A stretch of DNA of 28,959 nt from positions 1 through 28,959 of the IMG/VR virus record IMGVR_UViG_3300022173_000100; one strand, given 5' to 3'. The notes beneath the pieces are model-generated. The model did not search any database, was not told the origin of the DNA, and saw only the letters and a program-made list of their open reading frames with translations. Made by a program: the position numbers and the translations under genes. Of this stretch, positions 1 through 28,959 are shown piece after piece. Every line of letters starts with the position of its first letter. Positions within the stretch are counted from its first letter, which is position 1. This DNA comes from a virus (lineage: Duplodnaviria > Caudoviricetes).

Positions 1-192
1 ACACAAAAAAAAAAAAAAAAAATAAATAATAACAGATACTTAGCTCCATAGTAAAAAGACCCAAAACGCCTAACCCCTTGAAATCAGTTGTACTTATATT
101 TTTTTTTGAGTTATTTATTTTTAAGTACATAAGTACAGTATTAGTATAACTTATACCCTGCCCAACCACAATTCAAGTAGTTACGAAAACTG

Positions 193-221
193 TTGACACC
201 GCGACAACTTTGTGGTATAAT
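193..221 (+). promoter_or_regulatory. Host sigma70 promoter, extended -10
   Basis: TTGACA(193-198)-17 bp-TATAAT(216-221), with TG at 213-214. Confidence 0.9.
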
Positions 222-238
222 ATTGATTGGAGAGTTTT

Positions 239-448
239 ATGAAAACTAGAAAATGCTCAGCTTGTAAAGAATTAAAAGCTTCAGATTGTTTTTATACTAA
301 ATCTCGCTACTGCAAAATCTGCACCCGTGAATATGGAAAGCGCAACTCACTCAAACACATTCTTAATATTCCTAATGTTACTGATTACGATAAAAAACAA
401 TACAATATCAACAAAGCTATAATAGAAAAATATTTAGAAAAAAAGTAG
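239..448 (+). CDS. Small Zn-finger protein (CxxC...CxxC)
   Basis: GGAGAG SD at 229-234 supports ATG 239 rather than TTG 227; CSAC...CKIC resembles the N-terminal Zn module of the EndoVII ORF at 6500. Confidence 0.7.
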   Translation: MKTRKCSACKELKASDCFYTKSRYCKICTREYGKRNSLKHILNIPNVTDYDKKQYNINKAIIEKYLEKK

Positions 449-453
449 ATCAT

Positions 454-469
454 TGGCACCATTCTTGCA
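454..469 (+). promoter_or_regulatory. sigma54 (-24/-12) promoter consensus
   Basis: TGGCAC-cattc-TTGCA, exact GG-N10-GC spacing, intergenic. Confidence 0.65.
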
Positions 470-517: not shown

Positions 518-546
518 TTGACAGATTGGACTTTTTCTGATATAAT
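518..546 (+). promoter_or_regulatory. Host sigma70 promoter (rightward member of convergent pair)
   Basis: TTGACA(518-523)-17 bp-TATAAT(541-546), TG at 538-539. Confidence 0.9.
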
Positions 547-596
547 GGAAGTAGCGCTTTTACGTTGTAGCGCCAAAACGTGCGGACGCTACTTTC

Positions 597-625
597 ATTA
601 TAACATGGTGGCGTGGTGACGTCAA
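597..625 (-). promoter_or_regulatory. Host sigma70 promoter (leftward member of convergent pair)
   Basis: Minus strand reads TTGACG(625-620)-17 bp-TATAAT(602-597) with an extended TGn. Confidence 0.85.
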
Positions 626-661: not shown

Positions 662-677
662 TGGCATAAACTTTGCA
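662..677 (+). promoter_or_regulatory. sigma54 (-24/-12) promoter consensus
   Basis: TGGCAT-aaact-TTGCA, exact spacing, intergenic. Confidence 0.6.
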
Positions 678-721
678 AGGCGGCGAAACGCCCCAAGGTT
701 AGTATTACCTCAAAATAGTTG

Positions 722-750
722 TTGACTTATTATCAATAATAACCGATAAT
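722..750 (+). promoter_or_regulatory. Host sigma70 promoter
   Basis: TTGACT-17 bp-GATAAT; near-palindrome TTATTATCAATAATAA (727-742) in the spacer. Confidence 0.7.
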
Positions 751-766
751 AATTATGGAGGTACTT

Positions 767-946
767 ATGGAATTTTTTATGGCTATAGCATTACTTTGTC
801 AGGTTGCAACTGGAAACGAACTTCGATGGAAATCGGAATCGGAGCAAGCAAGTTGTCATAAATATTATGCAAAATGTTTTAGAGAATCTAAAGCTAAATT
901 TAAAAACGATACTGAGGTTTTAACTCATTGTGTTGAGAGTAGATAA
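767..946 (+). CDS. Small Cys-containing protein with hydrophobic N-terminus (possibly exported)
   Basis: GGAGG SD at 757-761 fits ATG 767; MEFFMAIALLC N-terminus; 4 Cys. Confidence 0.65.
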   Translation: MEFFMAIALLCQVATGNELRWKSESEQASCHKYYAKCFRESKAKFKNDTEVLTHCVESR

Positions 947-2276: not shown

Positions 2277-4166
2277 GTGGCGAAAAAACCATCTAAAATA
2301 GAAGAAAAAGTTGTTGCATACGATCCTAAAGCGAAAGTGATTGAGGAGTATGTTAACCAACCGGCTAACGGCGGCACAATTAAGTCACAGTGGTGGAAAG
2401 TAGAGCCTGAAAACCAATTTAAACACATCGCGGCTGTAACTAACTCAATAATAGAATCTCAATCCTACCGTCAAATGATGAATTTACGGTATGCACGTTT
2501 ATACGCCAATCAAGACTTACAAGGTTTTGGAATGGGAATGTATGATCGCGTAACAGCTACCTCTATTCAAAATCGTGCATCTTATAACGTTGTAAAAGCT
2601 TGTGTAGATTCTGCAGCTGCTAAGATTGCGAAACAAAGACCTAGAATTGTAGCACTCACAAACGGTGGATCGTGGAATTTACAACAACGATCTAAGAAAT
2701 TAAGCAAATACATTGGTGGTCTATTTAATAACATGAATGCCTATTCAGAAATGAGTAAAGTATTTGTTGATGCTTGCGTATTTGGTACTGGCGCTTTAAA
2801 AGTTTTTCAAGATGGAGAAACGGTTAAGTGTGAGCGAGTGTTTATTAATGAAATAGTGGTAGATGATGCTGAGTCCATTTACGGACAACCTAGACAACTA
2901 CATCAAATTAAATACATCAGCAGAGATGTTCTTATAAACATGTTTCCAGAACACGCGGAAAAAATTATATCTGCTTCATCTGGAATGCCAGGAGACGCTT
3001 CTACAACCACATCCTATGCTGCGGACTATATCACAGTAAGAGAATCTTGGCATTTAAAATCTGGAAAAAACGCCACCGACGGTGTTAAAGTTATTTCAAT
3101 AGAAAATTGCACACTAGACTCGCAACCTTATAACAAGGATGATTTTCCGTTTTTATTTTTAAAATGGTCTAGACGTTTACTCGGTTTTTTTGGTGTTGGT
3201 ATTGCAGAAGAATTAATTGGTTTACAGATTGAAATTAACAAACTTTTAAGAGATATTCAATCGGCTCAAAACCTTGCTTGCGTACCTAGGGTTTTAATTG
3301 AGTCTGGATCAAGCGTAGTTGAAGACCACATCAATAATAAGATCGGCTCAATTATAAAATATACCGGAACCGCGCCAACAATTGTTACAGCAAATGCAAT
3401 GCCTACTGAACTTTACAATTTTTTAGAAACACTATATCAAAAAGCGTTTCAAATCACAGGTATTTCCCAACTCTCCGCGTCTTCTCAAAAACCAGCTGGA
3501 CTAAACTCCGGTGTGGCTTTACGTGAATACCAAGATATTGAGACAGAAAGATTCAGCCTAGTATCTCAAGCTTACGAAGACATGTTTATTGAATTAGGGA
3601 ACCGATGTATTGACTTATCAAAAGAGTTATCCGAGATTAATCCTAAACTATCTATAAATGTTGTTGGAAGCCAACTAGTTGAAGAAATATCGTGGTCGGA
3701 AATCCAAGTAAGCAAAGATCAATTTATTTTACAACTATACCCAGCGTCCCTTTTACCAACTCAACCAGCCGGACGGTTACAACGAGTTCAAGAGTTATTG
3801 CAAGCAGGTATGATTAATCAAACTACTGCTAAATCTTTACTTGACATGCCAGATTTAGATGATGCAATGGATAATGAGCTTGCTGCTTATAATGATATAC
3901 ATGCAGTAATTGAGTGGATGATGGAGAAAAATGAATACTCTGCTCCAGAGCCTTTTATGAATCCAGAATTGTGTATTCAAATAGGTAACTCACAATATTT
4001 ACGCGCAAAAACTAGTGGAGTTGAGGAAGAAAAGTTAGAACTATTAAGACGATTTATTGAGGATAGTGCGCAGCTAATAAAACTAGCTACTCCACAACAA
4101 CCTACTAACCCAGCCTTGGCAGTTCCTGAAGCGCTTCCAACGTCTGATCTAATTCCTCAAGCGTAG
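2277..4166 (+). CDS. Portal protein (podovirus/P22-like)
   Basis: 629 aa, GTG start; portal-like motifs YNVVKACVD..AKI...RP, FGVGIAEELIGLQIEIN, SGVALRE; precedes scaffold and capsid. Confidence 0.9.
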   Translation: MAKKPSKIEEKVVAYDPKAKVIEEYVNQPANGGTIKSQWWKVEPENQFKHIAAVTNSIIESQSYRQMMNLRYARLYANQDLQGFGMGMYDRVTATSIQNRASYNVVKACVDSAAAKIAKQRPRIVALTNGGSWNLQQRSKKLSKYIGGLFNNMNAYSEMSKVFVDACVFGTGALKVFQDGETVKCERVFINEIVVDDAESIYGQPRQLHQIKYISRDVLINMFPEHAEKIISASSGMPGDASTTTSYAADYITVRESWHLKSGKNATDGVKVISIENCTLDSQPYNKDDFPFLFLKWSRRLLGFFGVGIAEELIGLQIEINKLLRDIQSAQNLACVPRVLIESGSSVVEDHINNKIGSIIKYTGTAPTIVTANAMPTELYNFLETLYQKAFQITGISQLSASSQKPAGLNSGVALREYQDIETERFSLVSQAYEDMFIELGNRCIDLSKELSEINPKLSINVVGSQLVEEISWSEIQVSKDQFILQLYPASLLPTQPAGRLQRVQELLQAGMINQTTAKSLLDMPDLDDAMDNELAAYNDIHAVIEWMMEKNEYSAPEPFMNPELCIQIGNSQYLRAKTSGVEEEKLELLRRFIEDSAQLIKLATPQQPTNPALAVPEALPTSDLIPQA

Positions 4167-25076: not shown

Positions 25077-25277
25077 CTACTTACTCAACTTTCCCATAGC
25101 ATCATTACAAATCGCTCTAACCCCTTCCTCAGACATACCCACATCGTAAAGTCTTTTAGCGCAATCAATCATAGCTTCGCGGTCACGTTCACGACGTGGA
25201 GTCTCATTTTTAGGTTCTAGAAGAGAGCATCCAGGTCCTAATAATCCGATTAATAAAAGTGATAAAATTAGTTTCAT
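25077..25277 (-). CDS. Putative lipoprotein
   Basis: MKLILSLLLIGLLGPG|C signal/lipobox-like; two further Cys. Confidence 0.65.
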   Translation of the reverse strand: MKLILSLLLIGLLGPGCSLLEPKNETPRRERDREAMIDCAKRLYDVGMSEEGVRAICNDAMGKLSK

Positions 25278-25492
25278 AAACCCCCCTTGTGATCCTCATA
25301 ATGTCTTTCCATCAAAACACCAGCTACATATGCGTCTATAAACATTAATTTACTTAAGTGATCCATTTTTAGTTCTAATGCAAAACGAGATGCTAATTTT
25401 AGCGCATCAAGATAAGAATCTTTATGGGTATCCTTTATTATTTTTAAAGCTTCTAGTAGTGGGTAATTAGTTAAATTTTGTTTATGATACAT
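25274..25492 (-). CDS. Hypothetical protein
   Basis: 72 aa, translationally coupled to neighbours. Confidence 0.65.
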   Translation of the reverse strand: MYHKQNLTNYPLLEALKIIKDTHKDSYLDALKLASRFALELKMDHLSKLMFIDAYVAGVLMERHYEDHKGGL

Positions 25493-25675
25493 TTAAAACT
25501 CCTTATAGTATGTTGCATATATGTAGGTAAAAGTAGGAATAATTATAATTAATCCGAATGTTAAATAAGCCCAAAACATGTTACCTTCGGTTAAGTCTTT
25601 TAAATCTACCCCACTACCGCTGGGTATTACTATTGTTTTTGATTTTACTTTTTTTCTTTTTTTTGTTTTTTTCAT
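25493..25675 (-). CDS. Small membrane protein
   Basis: Basic N-terminus, C-terminal TM helix. Confidence 0.65.
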   Translation of the reverse strand: MKKTKKRKKVKSKTIVIPSGSGVDLKDLTEGNMFWAYLTFGLIIIIPTFTYIYATYYKEF

Positions 25676-25682
25676 AACTTAC

Positions 25683-26018
25683 CTACCTTGTTGACTCAAT
25701 AGCTACTTTTGCAGCAAATCCAGTAATTAAAACACCTAAAGTAAAGTATCCAACTGATTTCCAAAAACTACGTGCCTCAGAAGATTTAAGTTCACTTTTA
25801 TAAAGCTCAACTCTTTCATCTTGGATAGCGGATAAATCTTTAAGCTTGAGGTTCTGCAACTCAAGATTTTTCTTATCTTCGTTAATTTGTCTAAACTCTT
25901 TCATTTGCGCGGCATCAGACAAAATTCCATCATACGGCGCTACATCGCCCTTTTTGAGGGTGGTCATTTCGGCGTGAGCCAGTCTTACTATTAGTAGTGC
26001 GATTAGTGCGTATCTCAT
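25683..26018 (-). CDS. Spanin-like protein (signal peptide, coiled coil, C-terminal TM)
   Basis: AHA cleavage site; LKKGDVAPYDGIL; coiled coil; YFTLGVLITGFAA. Confidence 0.55.
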   Translation of the reverse strand: MRYALIALLIVRLAHAEMTTLKKGDVAPYDGILSDAAQMKEFRQINEDKKNLELQNLKLKDLSAIQDERVELYKSELKSSEARSFWKSVGYFTLGVLITGFAAKVAIESTR

Positions 26019-26020
26019 AG

Positions 26021-26251
26021 TTACTCCTTATCGATGCATGATGTATATTCATTATCAATTTCGTTAATATTAACTTTATAATTTGATAAATGTTGCCAGT
26101 TGAGTAGTTCGTATGTTGAGCCGTTTACCTCTAAAACTTTATAACGTACCACATTACCTGTTGGATCAGCCTTATTACAAATAAATTGACCTTCAGAAAA
26201 TTTTGCTGAATTACAGGATACTATTAATATAAAAAATAAGAATAATCTCAC
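26021..26251 (-). CDS. Putative lipoprotein
   Basis: GTG start; MRLFLFFILIVS|C. Confidence 0.6.
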   Translation of the reverse strand: MRLFLFFILIVSCNSAKFSEGQFICNKADPTGNVVRYKVLEVNGSTYELLNWQHLSNYKVNINEIDNEYTSCIDKE

Positions 26252-26484
26252 TTTTTCTCCTTATTCCAATAGTCAAGTTCAGATTCTAGCGTCTTATCTT
26301 CAACCGGTTTACCGATTTTTTCATCAAGCGCTTTAACTTCCGCCTTAACCTCATCCGCTTTTTTATCAAGCGCTGCAGATTTTGAGGTGAACTCTACACT
26401 AGCCCCGCCTTTACGGAAAAAAAGAAAAATAAAGCCGATAGCTCCGATAATTGCCGCTGCGATTCCAGTGATGAATGATTTCAT
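26248..26484 (-). CDS. i-spanin-like membrane protein
   Basis: N-terminal TM helix plus coiled coil, immediately after the endolysin. Confidence 0.55.
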   Translation of the reverse strand: MKSFITGIAAAIIGAIGFIFLFFRKGGASVEFTSKSAALDKKADEVKAEVKALDEKIGKPVEDKTLESELDYWNKEKK

Positions 26485-26495
26485 AATTTATCCTT

Positions 26496-26879
26496 TTATG
26501 GTTTAAATACTCTAGTTCTTCCATCTACACGACTTTTAGGCTTACGAAGCTGTAAATGGACCCACGTTGTGGCTATTGCTGGGTCTTCCATAAATAGACC
26601 ACATTTTTCTAATATTTCATCAGTACAAAAGTTTGTCAATTCCCTAGATATATCTTTAAAGTCTACTGCTTCTAACGTTAAATGCGCCGACTTTTTGCCG
26701 CCGCCCGCTTTTGTGTTGTAATGTCCCGGACGGTAGCCAGAAGATACGGACATTGGTTTACCATATAGTTGACGTAATTTATTAACTGCAATGAGTAAAT
26801 TATTGAGCTTTGTTTCTAATTCGGGCGTTAATGGGTATTCTTTATCACGTCCCATTAAAACCTCATCACGCGTAATCAT
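26496..26879 (-). CDS. Peptidase M15A-family endolysin
   Basis: LR..YGKPM.VSSGYR...N...GG...SAH....AVD...WVHL zinc motif. Confidence 0.9.
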   Translation of the reverse strand: MITRDEVLMGRDKEYPLTPELETKLNNLLIAVNKLRQLYGKPMSVSSGYRPGHYNTKAGGGKKSAHLTLEAVDFKDISRELTNFCTDEILEKCGLFMEDPAIATTWVHLQLRKPKSRVDGRTRVFKP

Positions 26880-27394
26880 GGTATATCCTTTAGCATCATA
26901 TCGTTATAATAAAATGCGCATTTACTTTTTAAATGCTTCAATCTTGGCTCCGCTTGAACTGCCAACATATCACTAAATTGTACCACGTTTTGAATCAAAA
27001 GTAAACCTTTTTCTATTTCCATGCACAAAATAACGTAGTGCCCCTCAAATTTCGGAAGGGAACTTTTTTCCATCAACCAACTCATGCCGTAGCGTTTTAC
27101 TGAATCAATTGATTGCGTTTTAACGCTAAAGTTATGACCTCCAGCGGTTAAGTCTGCAGAATGGGATTTACGTCCACCCCTATAAATCTCTAAATCAGGT
27201 AAAGTCGTATCGGCAAATTTTGAGGAGAGCAGTTCGTACGCCGCAAACTCTCCCAATTTCCCCGTGATAATGTCTTGCGTAATCTTATCCAGGTTAGCTT
27301 GTCCACGTGAAGCATAATATTTATTAGTTTGGGCGCATTCTTGCGCGAATAACGTGCATTTATCGATTGTTTCTTGGGCAATTTTAATCAACAT
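26876..27394 (-). CDS. Putative PD-(D/E)XK-fold nuclease-like protein
   Basis: GKLGEFAA helix, ADL, SVKT (the D/E of D/ExK is replaced by S). Confidence 0.5.
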   Translation of the reverse strand: MLIKIAQETIDKCTLFAQECAQTNKYYASRGQANLDKITQDIITGKLGEFAAYELLSSKFADTTLPDLEIYRGGRKSHSADLTAGGHNFSVKTQSIDSVKRYGMSWLMEKSSLPKFEGHYVILCMEIEKGLLLIQNVVQFSDMLAVQAEPRLKHLKSKCAFYYNDMMLKDIP

Positions 27395-28077
27395 TGGAAC
27401 TCCGATTTAGTAAATATTTTTTCAATCCTTATTTTTTCAGCATGATTACAATGCATTTCTAAATTTCTATTAAATTCATATACACACTTAAAGTCTTCCG
27501 GTGCACTATACTCAGAAATATACACTAAATTGTTTTTACTAAGATCTCTTACTTTATCCCAAAACTTATTGTAATTAAAATCAACGCTGTATTTAGTAGT
27601 ATTAGCATATGGCGGGTCTAAATATATTAAAGCCCCTTCTACATCTAAATCAAATAAAGACATATTTTTGAAGGAGAGTCCTATTTTATTTTTAAATTTT
27701 TTTTCTAAAGAATTTTTTGCATTTTGCGCATAATTTCTATCTATACTACCTCTTGCATATCCACTAAAGTATTTACCAGAAAAAGAACATCCAAAACCAA
27801 TAAATGCTTTTAAAGGGTTGTTATCTGGTAGACTTTTAGCATTTTCATAATCTAATTCTGAAACTGCACTAGGAGGTTCAAATCCGGTTAATATTGCATT
27901 ATATAAACAAATTAATGAACTATGCACATCTATTCCTAATCGATCCCCTGACATTCTAGTTATTATACTAGCACCCCCAACAGTTCCATCTATAAATAAT
28001 TGTCCAGGTTTTCTTTTACTTTCTAAAAATTCTACAATTTTTTTTGCTACTTTTTCTTTTCCACCCAAATATTGCAT
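27388..28077 (-). CDS. DNA adenine methyltransferase (D12/Dam class)
   Basis: YLGGK N-terminus, FIGFGCSFSGKYF.GY, IYLDPPY, VYISEY. Confidence 0.9.
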   Translation of the reverse strand: MQYLGGKEKVAKKIVEFLESKRKPGQLFIDGTVGGASIITRMSGDRLGIDVHSSLICLYNAILTGFEPPSAVSELDYENAKSLPDNNPLKAFIGFGCSFSGKYFSGYARGSIDRNYAQNAKNSLEKKFKNKIGLSFKNMSLFDLDVEGALIYLDPPYANTTKYSVDFNYNKFWDKVRDLSKNNLVYISEYSAPEDFKCVYEFNRNLEMHCNHAEKIRIEKIFTKSEFQC

Positions 28078-28086
28078 ATATACTCC

Positions 28087-28959
28087 TTAGTGTGATTCTG
28101 CAAAGTTTTTACCAAACGCCGGCGGCGCTTTAAGTTTTACTGGCAGTTCTATAACAGATTCCATGCATTCTTGCGCAATAGTAGCGGCTCTAGCTTTAAA
28201 TTCCTCTTTTACCTCAATAACCAACTGATCATGAATTTGACATATAACTAAGGCTGGGATTTTATGTTTAATAAACTCTCTATTAACAGCGATTGCAGCG
28301 CGGTTTACTACTGATGCGGCTAACGATTGGATTTGAAAGTTACGCCCGTTATTGATATAATTTGTAATCTTACGTCTTTTCTCTTTCATTTCCTCATACA
28401 GTGTAGGGCTTTCGTGGAACTGTTTCCACAACTCTAGAGAATCAAATATCCACGGTCCAGTTTCACGTAATATCGTAATAGCTTCTGGCATCCTACGTTT
28501 ACGACCTACTAAAGAGGTTACATAACCTAGTTTTTTTACCGAATCATCCGTAGTGTCCATCCATTTTTTTAAGTTTGGAAACGCTCTCATGTATTGATCA
28601 ATTAATCGTTGAGCCTCGTCCTGAGAAATATTTAACTCCTTACTCAATTTGAAAGAGCCCATTCCATATGGAACACCCAAACAATAGGATTTACTCTTTT
28701 GACGTGCAGCCTTATTAATCTTTCCAAGATAGTTTGGTGCATTCTTATCAGCAGAAACGCCTTCCAACCGTTCGGTCATAATTGCAATAGTTGAGTAGAA
28801 GTCTTGATTTTTATTGAAGATGTCTTGTAAGCCTTTATCGCCTGAAACCGCGCTAAAAATGTGCGGCTCTAATGATTCATAGTCGATATCAACAAATGAA
28901 TGAAATGGGCGAGATACAAAAAACTCACGAATTGCATTTGTGTATTTCATGACTAAAGC
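28087..28959 (-). CDS. polA: DNA polymerase family A, C-terminal part (5'-truncated by the window)
   Basis: Motif A DYESLE, motif B RQKSKSYCLGVPYG, NFQIQS, motif C QIHDQL; frame stays open (GCT TTA GTC) to the window edge. Confidence 0.95.
   Translation of the reverse strand, partial: ALVMKYTNAIREFFVSRPFHSFVDIDYESLEPHIFSAVSGDKGLQDIFNKNQDFYSTIAIMTERLEGVSADKNAPNYLGKINKAARQKSKSYCLGVPYGMGSFKLSKELNISQDEAQRLIDQYMRAFPNLKKWMDTTDDSVKKLGYVTSLVGRKRRMPEAITILRETGPWIFDSLELWKQFHESPTLYEEMKEKRRKITNYINNGRNFQIQSLAASVVNRAAIAVNREFIKHKIPALVICQIHDQLVIEVKEEFKARAATIAQECMESVIELPVKLKAPPAFGKNFAESH

Follow-up and report, generated by a model that had tools for sequence, protein, structure and literature searches.

Mirror-symmetric, face-to-face consensus sigma70 promoters in a podovirus-like genome: a probable case of known interference geometry with unusually exact symmetry

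Background

The closest described counterpart of the locus analyzed here is found at helD of B. subtilis, where an antisense promoter with no gene of its own, its start lying 39 bp from that of the sense promoter, represses the latter by interference; a stalled antisense polymerase relieves the repression and a gap shortened by 17 bp abolishes regulation (PMC12802891). As far as the excerpts of that report go, the motif used to search for pairs of the helD/pps kind has a gap of 45-55 between the two -10 boxes, and interference is usually asymmetric, a strong promoter acting on a weak one (PMC12802891). Modelling of facing promoters, in the sections of the source drawn on here, associates a distance of 50 bp with dislodgement of bound polymerase rather than with collision (PMC5001618).

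Here we describe a facing promoter pair in the window, by which we mean the whole 28,959-nucleotide stretch of viral DNA that was analyzed. A literature search of partial coverage turned up no paper that describes such a pair with mirror symmetry in a lytic phage.

Results and Discussion

Structure and symmetry of the promoter pair

The original prediction described two facing sigma70 promoters with extended TGn motifs, 16-bp arms matching at 15 of 16 positions around unrelated spacers, and starts at about 553 and 590, some 37 bp apart. All of this was borne out, and the elements are as follows.

518-546, forward strand: promoter P+, TTGACA-17-TATAAT, 12/12, extended TG, predicted start A553
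541-556, forward strand: left 16-bp arm, comprising the -10 box, the discriminator and the first 4 transcribed bases
557-586, no strand: inner palindrome, imperfect, whose hairpin loop has a third GTAGCG (567-572)
587-602, reverse strand: right 16-bp arm, matching the left one at 15/16 positions
597-625, reverse strand: promoter P-, TTGACG-17-TATAAT, 11/12, extended TG, predicted start A590

The starts were inferred from the positions of the -10 boxes. P+ and P- face each other with 50 bp between the -10 boxes and 38 bp, counted inclusively, between the predicted starts, and both have T-1, A+1, G+2 and a purine-rich discriminator. The two arms form the sole inverted repeat of their kind in the window (16 bp, at most one mismatch, at most 60 bp between). 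Beyond what had been predicted, the palindrome extends inward to a centre at 571/572, giving 34-bp arms with Watson-Crick pairs at 25 of 34 positions. Nine of the ten bases 3' of the two -10 boxes match, for which the chance is 5.5e-5 if bases are independent, and the -35 boxes pair at 5/6 positions; the spacers outside TGn pair at 0/14. Six promoters in the window have a 17-bp spacer and score 11/12 or better, against 0.43 expected from 30 Markov simulations. The pair is real and non-random, and its symmetry is unusual and unexplained.

Two repeats had also been pointed out: CAAAACGTG does occur at 574 and 629; AAAACGC is present at 63 and 474 but is not special, with nine copies in the window. 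An assembly artefact is unlikely as judged from the sequence alone, since fold-back artefacts would be expected to give perfect repeats and not 15/16 arms with unrelated spacers. A 6S-like mimic was rejected: the unpaired region would lie between -35 and -10 and not at the start, and no Rfam match was found.

Genes and signals around the pair

The window is a partial podovirus-like genome. Its + strand carries the capsid and tail genes, and its - strand, at the right end, those for endolysin, methylase and family A polymerase. The features flanking the pair, and the portal, are listed below.

193-221, forward strand: consensus sigma70 promoter, 12/12, TG, before ORF 227-448; its transcript would run into the pair
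227-448, forward strand: ORF of 73 aa, weakly similar to the N-terminal portion of endonuclease VII/HNH families
454-469, forward strand: sigma54-like -24/-12 motif, perfect match
662-677, forward strand: second sigma54-like motif, 1 mismatch
667-703, forward strand: predicted RNA hairpin that lacks a U-tract and was not called as an intrinsic terminator in the terminator scan
722-750, forward strand: separate promoter, 10/12, directly before ORF 755
755-946, forward strand: ORF 755-946, first gene 3' of P+, small, Cys-containing, with a hydrophobic N-terminus
2277-4166, forward strand: SU10-type portal

Both genes that flank the pair are on the + strand. ORF 227-448, which a P- transcript would cross antisense, matched phrog_2340 (E 1e-4) and phrog_1035 (E 1e-3), and a search for a longer homolog found none. 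ORF 755-946 has a single homolog of 92% (P0121), with no family match in profile searches and no Atlas match. The region is a dense promoter cluster, with five sigma70 promoters (193, 518, 625 in reverse, 722, 1108) and two sigma54-like motifs (454, 662), the motifs being a further addition to the original prediction. These motifs were called with what we take to be the sigma54 -24/-12 consensus; by this assumed consensus the window has six, against 0.37 expected. An RBS-like sequence and a start codon stand directly 3' of the four other strong forward promoters, at 193, 722, 1108 and 13890. P+ is followed by one doubtful RBS-led candidate ahead of the next promoter, and P- by no RBS-led gene within 210 nt. 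An AT-rich palindrome, TTATTAT-CA-ATAATAA (727-742), lies inside the spacer of the 722-750 promoter and may be an operator.

No RNA polymerase, integrase or repressor was found among the 41 scanned ORFs of the window, nor among 46 non-structural ORFs (those of the structural region left out) of G001, a complete 52.7-kb relative with a portal of 71% identity; the phage is therefore likely to depend on host polymerase and is apparently lytic. The polymerase gene (window region 25077-28959) runs opposite to the portal gene here but shares its strand in G001, which points to a rearranged replication module. Neither the portal nor the promoter pair had a match in cultured phages. The single clue to the host, a 44% relative in an Elusimicrobiota MAG, is not informative.

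Three side observations concern the genome at large. Window 1-190 and positions 2700-2900 of a related contig (L088) are AT-rich, with runs of A and of T and the common motif CTAA.CCCTTGAAAT; the contigs of several relatives start near this stretch, as would be expected of a genome end or origin region. G001 encodes a terminase large subunit of 807 aa with a helicase-like N-terminal match (L271:8147-10570), far from the portal and on the opposite strand. The hexamer CCCAGA is strand-biased in the window (11 on +, 1 on -; sites include 1351, 1632, 2206, 4173, 17766 and 21010), is also present in L212, L214, L215, L240 and L241, often lies directly 5' of clade genes and is triplicate in L215; it is a candidate late-promoter or activator site of the phage.

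The region in related phages

Portal-based scans gave 27, 34 and 1 loci, of which five, at 71% identity or more, had at least 1.5 kb upstream; the closest portals (P0002, P0003) are at 86-88%. A scan with a neighbouring small ORF returned the contig of L215 again and nothing else. The original prediction had made a geometry not conserved in relatives an argument against itself, and the outcome goes largely that way. The facing pair was found in neither of the two relatives that span the region, L240 and G001, both of which carry sigma54-like motifs and have genes on the + strand to the left of the equivalent region as well. A relaxed pair search over 64 portal-clade loci, most of them distant or too short, found one, the window's own contig.

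One partial relative, L214 (portal 76%), starts inside a probable homolog of the pair and keeps a version without the mirror: a reverse promoter (TTGACA-17-TATCGT with TG and GAAAG after the -10 box) precedes the same conserved small ORFs as in the window, and a possible forward -10 box, followed by GGAGG..TAGCG, lies 29 bp from it, with its -35 box off the contig. The centre is shorter in L214, and the homology is not significant by local alignment, the element falling outside the top 8 of 1,154 window positions. L212 starts in three tandem 20-bp units resembling window 553-574. Of 1,154 window positions this is the best match for the unit but a weak one, at a score of 29 where the next position reaches 28; L212 lacks a reverse promoter at the corresponding place. 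L215 starts at a forward promoter. Judged by these relatives, the region is labile across the clade, part of which may share the reverse promoter; the exact mirror is so far unique and likely to be lineage-specific.

Sigma54-like -24/-12 motifs cluster in the non-coding region 5' of the portal across the clade, in both orientations (L088 2464, 2482 and 2512; L240 6769 and 7677; L257 6371; L263 5211 and 5237), and the equivalent region of G001/L088 has three perfect copies.

Facing promoter pairs in other phages

The exact facing pattern was found at at least 121 loci in IMG/VR (estimate about 310), and the back-to-back control at about 2,700, estimated from 3/64 parts, so that by these estimates facing pairs are about 9 times rarer. 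Among the 121 matches listed there were 103 distinct facing pairs, and compared with 103 other pairs among the matches listed the window stands out in two respects: identity after the -10 boxes was at most 8/10 elsewhere, against 9/10 in the window, and the window's spacer identity of 0/14 was the lowest. Likewise, among unrelated-spacer pairs of 379 phage consensus promoters, identity of at least 9/10 after the -10 box was seen in 130 of 59,413 (0.2%). Palindromy of the whole middle was slightly higher in one AT-rich pair (0.71 against 0.68 in the window).

Two classes of facing pair could be told apart. Among 65 distinct loci with 3-kb flanks, a PHROG transcription regulator adjoins 20 of the 40 that have a called flanking gene, and these regulator-adjoining pairs are ordinary temperate switches. 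The second class is a repeated gene-less cassette, which makes up the greater part of the 38 GC-hairpin pairs found in a set of 109 relaxed pairs and was seen at the loci below.

Around 3001-3100, with further copies: gene-less cassette in L104, L105, L119, L124, L130, L131 and L137
Around the same positions, with further copies: gene-less cassette in L140, L143, L149, L154, L157 and L160

Its order is terminator, forward consensus promoter, GC hairpin, reverse consensus promoter, another promoter and gene. The hairpin has 8-10 bp of GC and is variable in sequence and fixed in position, with the reverse promoter starting at its base; the gap is mostly 36-39, up to 3 copies occur per 6 kb, mostly in large phage contigs, and cultured phages gave no match. 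Helical periodicity of the gaps as a general trait is not claimed, because the peak at 36-39 stems mostly from this single family of cassettes: 22 of the 38 GC-hairpin pairs have gaps of 36-38, and the remaining 71 pairs are spread. The window pair, with a gap of 50, a centred palindrome, one copy and no terminator, differs from the cassette with its 36-39 gap, offset hairpin and several copies; it belongs to neither class, and its distinguishing trait is the symmetry.

DNA matches to a single arm numbered 88 in 86 loci, nine of them with a -35 box of at least 5/6, and none of the 88 had a facing partner arm. Symmetric arms with promoter context had no copy in IMG/VR, the one match being a terminator-like hairpin, and a motif common to the window and L214 gave 0 matches there. 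An unrelated contig (L036) carries two back-to-back copies of the 16-nt arm motif (1001-1016 and 1633-1648) in a long non-coding region, each 3' of a common CGGACTGTTTTATTTT.

Mode of action of the pair

We favour mutual transcriptional interference, to which we give a probability of about 0.5, in which P- would restrain read-through transcription of the small-gene and capsid operon in a podovirus that is apparently lytic. The facing consensus promoters for host sigma70, 50 bp apart, would act on double-stranded DNA: both would fire, and polymerases 38 bp apart would dislodge or occlude each other, as at helD. The gene-less P- would in this way brake rightward transcription from P+ and from the upstream promoters at 193 and 454 towards the small-gene cluster and the portal/capsid operon, and rightward output would rise whenever P- was slowed or blocked, for example by a protein on the GTAGCG inverted repeat or by a stalled or modified polymerase. 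Inverted copying, or a reshuffling of repeats in this labile region, may have produced the exact mirror, through which the two promoters would start transcription with similar kinetics and which may also serve as a symmetric operator.

Two DNA promoters fit the locus better than one hairpin because the reverse -35 box stands at the exact 17-bp register and the spacers have no paired positions; the -35 boxes, moreover, are unpaired in the predicted single-strand folds. The case for an interference valve draws on the helD tests and on the modelling of dislodgement at 50 bp, in so far as the excerpted sources give them (PMC12802891, PMC5001618). By analogy, the near-equality of the geometry to the tested helD pair counts in its favour, as do the recurrence of face-to-face consensus pairs in phages (at least 103 distinct), the transcription regulator beside 20 of the 40 loci with a called flanking gene, and the probable counterpart of P- in L214. 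On the other hand, L240 and G001 do without the pair, L212 lacks the reverse promoter, the L214 homology is not significant by local alignment, the relaxed search of the clade found no pair outside the window's own contig, and both window promoters look strong, whereas the published cases, in the parts of the report consulted, are usually strong on weak (PMC12802891). The brake cannot fully silence ORF 755, because the ORF's own promoter at 722-750 lies downstream of the pair, and interference by itself does not require the 9/10 identity or the inner palindrome.

Several other explanations were weighed against mutual interference. That the pair is incidental, an inverted copy of a strong promoter made by template switching or cassette shuffling and tolerated, with a P- that fires but matters little, seems unlikely to us. 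Such an origin would suit a labile region (tandem units in L212, a shorter centre in L214, no pair in L240 and G001), a mirror that is not kept in L214 and the lack in IMG/VR of symmetric-arm copies with promoter context and of matches to the window/L214 motif; yet a simple inverted duplicate would keep spacer identity, whereas here the spacers share nothing while -35, TG, -10 and discriminator were kept, and the rarity of facing relative to back-to-back pairs suggests that they are not freely tolerated. Alternatively, the consensus promoters and the neighbouring sigma70 and sigma54-like sites may titrate host holoenzyme onto phage DNA, since open complexes at two fully consensus promoters would be long-lived and slow to escape. 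T-1, A+1 and G+2 together with a purine-rich discriminator stabilise open complexes, and both promoters have them; seven holoenzyme sites are predicted in 193-1136, and neither P+ nor P- stands directly before an RBS, unlike the promoters at 193, 722, 1108 and 13890. Sigma54 holoenzyme, according to excerpts of one report, can repress by occupancy (PMC4551910). We regard such a sink as quite unlikely all the same: one pair per genome is a small sink, the facing geometry and the symmetry are not needed for it, and the pair is absent from two relatives. A self-folding strand accounts directly for the mirror symmetry. In priming of the sso type the displaced single + strand would fold and rebuild a duplex extended -10, and host polymerase would synthesise a primer, some 20 nt long, in the direction of the loop as far as the CS-6-like TAGCG. 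The + strand fold puts TAGCGC, 5/6 of CS-6 TAGCGA/T, in the terminal loop (DNA z -2.25), arm mismatches are G-T in 4/9 cases on the + strand against 2 on the - strand, and the published layout, as far as the excerpts describe it, likewise places CS-6 in the loop and the polymerase site distal to it (PMC8860593, PMC10378824). We nevertheless give sso-type priming a slim chance. The -10 box pairs in the fold, but the -35 duplex, 5 bp beyond a 14x14 loop, is not formed; no Rep or rolling-circle gene was found in the scanned ORFs of the window or G001, both of which encode a family A polymerase and a helicase; there is no skew signal; the symmetry is broken in L214; and TAGCG occurs 47 times in the window. 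The bidirectional origin that had been proposed fared no better, since in the window GC skew tracks the coding strand, and in G001 there is no flip across the corresponding region; a local sign change near 600 rests on 200-bp windows, and what remains is the sso-like resemblance.

A functional RNA is also improbable, whether as a P- antisense RNA, comparable to the antisense RNAs OOP of lambda and sar of P22, directed against the P+ RNA and the mRNA of ORF 227-448, or as a hairpin at 538-605 that, in RNA reading through from upstream, would serve as a processing site for a double-strand RNase. As + RNA the stretch 538-605 does reach -27.1 kcal/mol (z -5.0), and as - RNA -22.8; in the unrelated gene-less cassette of gut phages, transcription from the reverse promoter begins at a hairpin and runs into a terminator. 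RNAs initiated at the predicted starts, however, are no better folded than shuffles (z -0.65 and +0.67), the 5' hairpins on both are weak (z -1.65 and -0.68), either promoter transcribes only 4 of the 16 arm bases, the terminator scan found no intrinsic terminator and no Rfam match was obtained up to E 1. The sense/antisense sRNA pair of the original prediction is not supported by the fold, terminator and Rfam results. The convergent promoters Pe and Pc belong to the switch of temperate phage P2, and a bistable left/right developmental switch of the 186/P2 type would likewise have facing promoters with an inverted repeat over both starts; the replication genes of the window are on the - strand, and a leftward operon could begin beyond base 1. 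We consider this highly improbable, as scans of the window ORFs and of the 46 tested ORFs of G001 gave no repressor, Cro or integrase, and both flanking genes are on the + strand, likewise to the left of the equivalent region in L240 and G001. From the RNAP-occlusion switch originally proposed, mutual interference is retained as the most likely action, while for bistability the scanned ORFs gave no repressor or integrase, and no RBS-led gene follows P- within 210 nt.

If mutual interference is the correct reading, a lytic-looking phage in which no repressor was found uses a helD-type geometry as a regulator-free valve, and the pair offers a compact natural test, with two equally strong, symmetric promoters at 38 bp. 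This would be a modest extension of known transcriptional interference, and would matter much more if the symmetry had a second role in single-strand priming. Such a combination can be put forward with little confidence: a dual-mode, protein-free element whose matched opposed promoters would read the state of host RNA polymerase and gate the morphogenesis operon, whose displaced strand would fold into an sso-like priming hairpin, and which would be one of a larger class of lytic-phage modules made of facing promoters without a gene.

Comparison with known systems

To call the pair an undescribed system, as the original prediction did, was an overstatement: the same geometry has been published for helD/pps, as excerpts of the report show (PMC12802891). 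PhelD/Panti-helD and Ppps/Panti-pps are likewise two facing housekeeping-sigma promoters, with starts at 39 bp there and 38 bp predicted here, and the window's gap of 50 falls inside 45-55, its antisense promoter is gene-less and a gene lies within 300 bp downstream (PMC12802891, in part). On the broad description of such pairs the window agrees, its promoters being convergent, with spacers within 16-20, 45-100 bp apart and no more than 300 bp from a gene; the loose motif is unspecific and also matches 2 other sites in the window. The strict motif finds no match at 518, the antisense spacer being 17 and not 18-19, and the window promoters are both near-perfect, not weak plus strong; nor is an intrinsic terminator predicted behind P- that would give a terminated antisense RNA of about 90 nt, as the consulted parts describe for helD/pps (PMC12802891). 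Kinetic asymmetry and inducibility by rifampicin are further traits of the helD/pps system. The window pair differs further in its mirror-symmetric arms, in sitting in a phage and in a downstream gene that is without a family and has its own promoter.

With the temperate switches (186 pR/pL, lambda PR/PRE) the pair shares facing host promoters in a phage control region and repeats between them, in so far as the excerpts describe these (PMC5001618, PMC7498355); it differs in having no divergent repressor/Cro genes, no integrase found and co-oriented flanking genes. The ssoA/U/W and Frpo-type promoters resemble it in a hairpin with promoter boxes away from a TAGCG-containing loop, according to partial accounts (PMC8860593, PMC10378824, PMC13478746), whereas the predicted window hairpin is short, with the spacer unpaired, CS-6 at 5/6 and no Rep found, in a tailed dsDNA phage. 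The PeSL cassettes of T4-type phages are, in the excerpts of two reports, promoter-plus-hairpin modules of variable regions (PMC2839356, PMC4122927), and the window differs from them in its one copy, two opposed promoters and lack of a terminator. The geometry of the pair is thus known, and only its unusually exact mirror symmetry is new.
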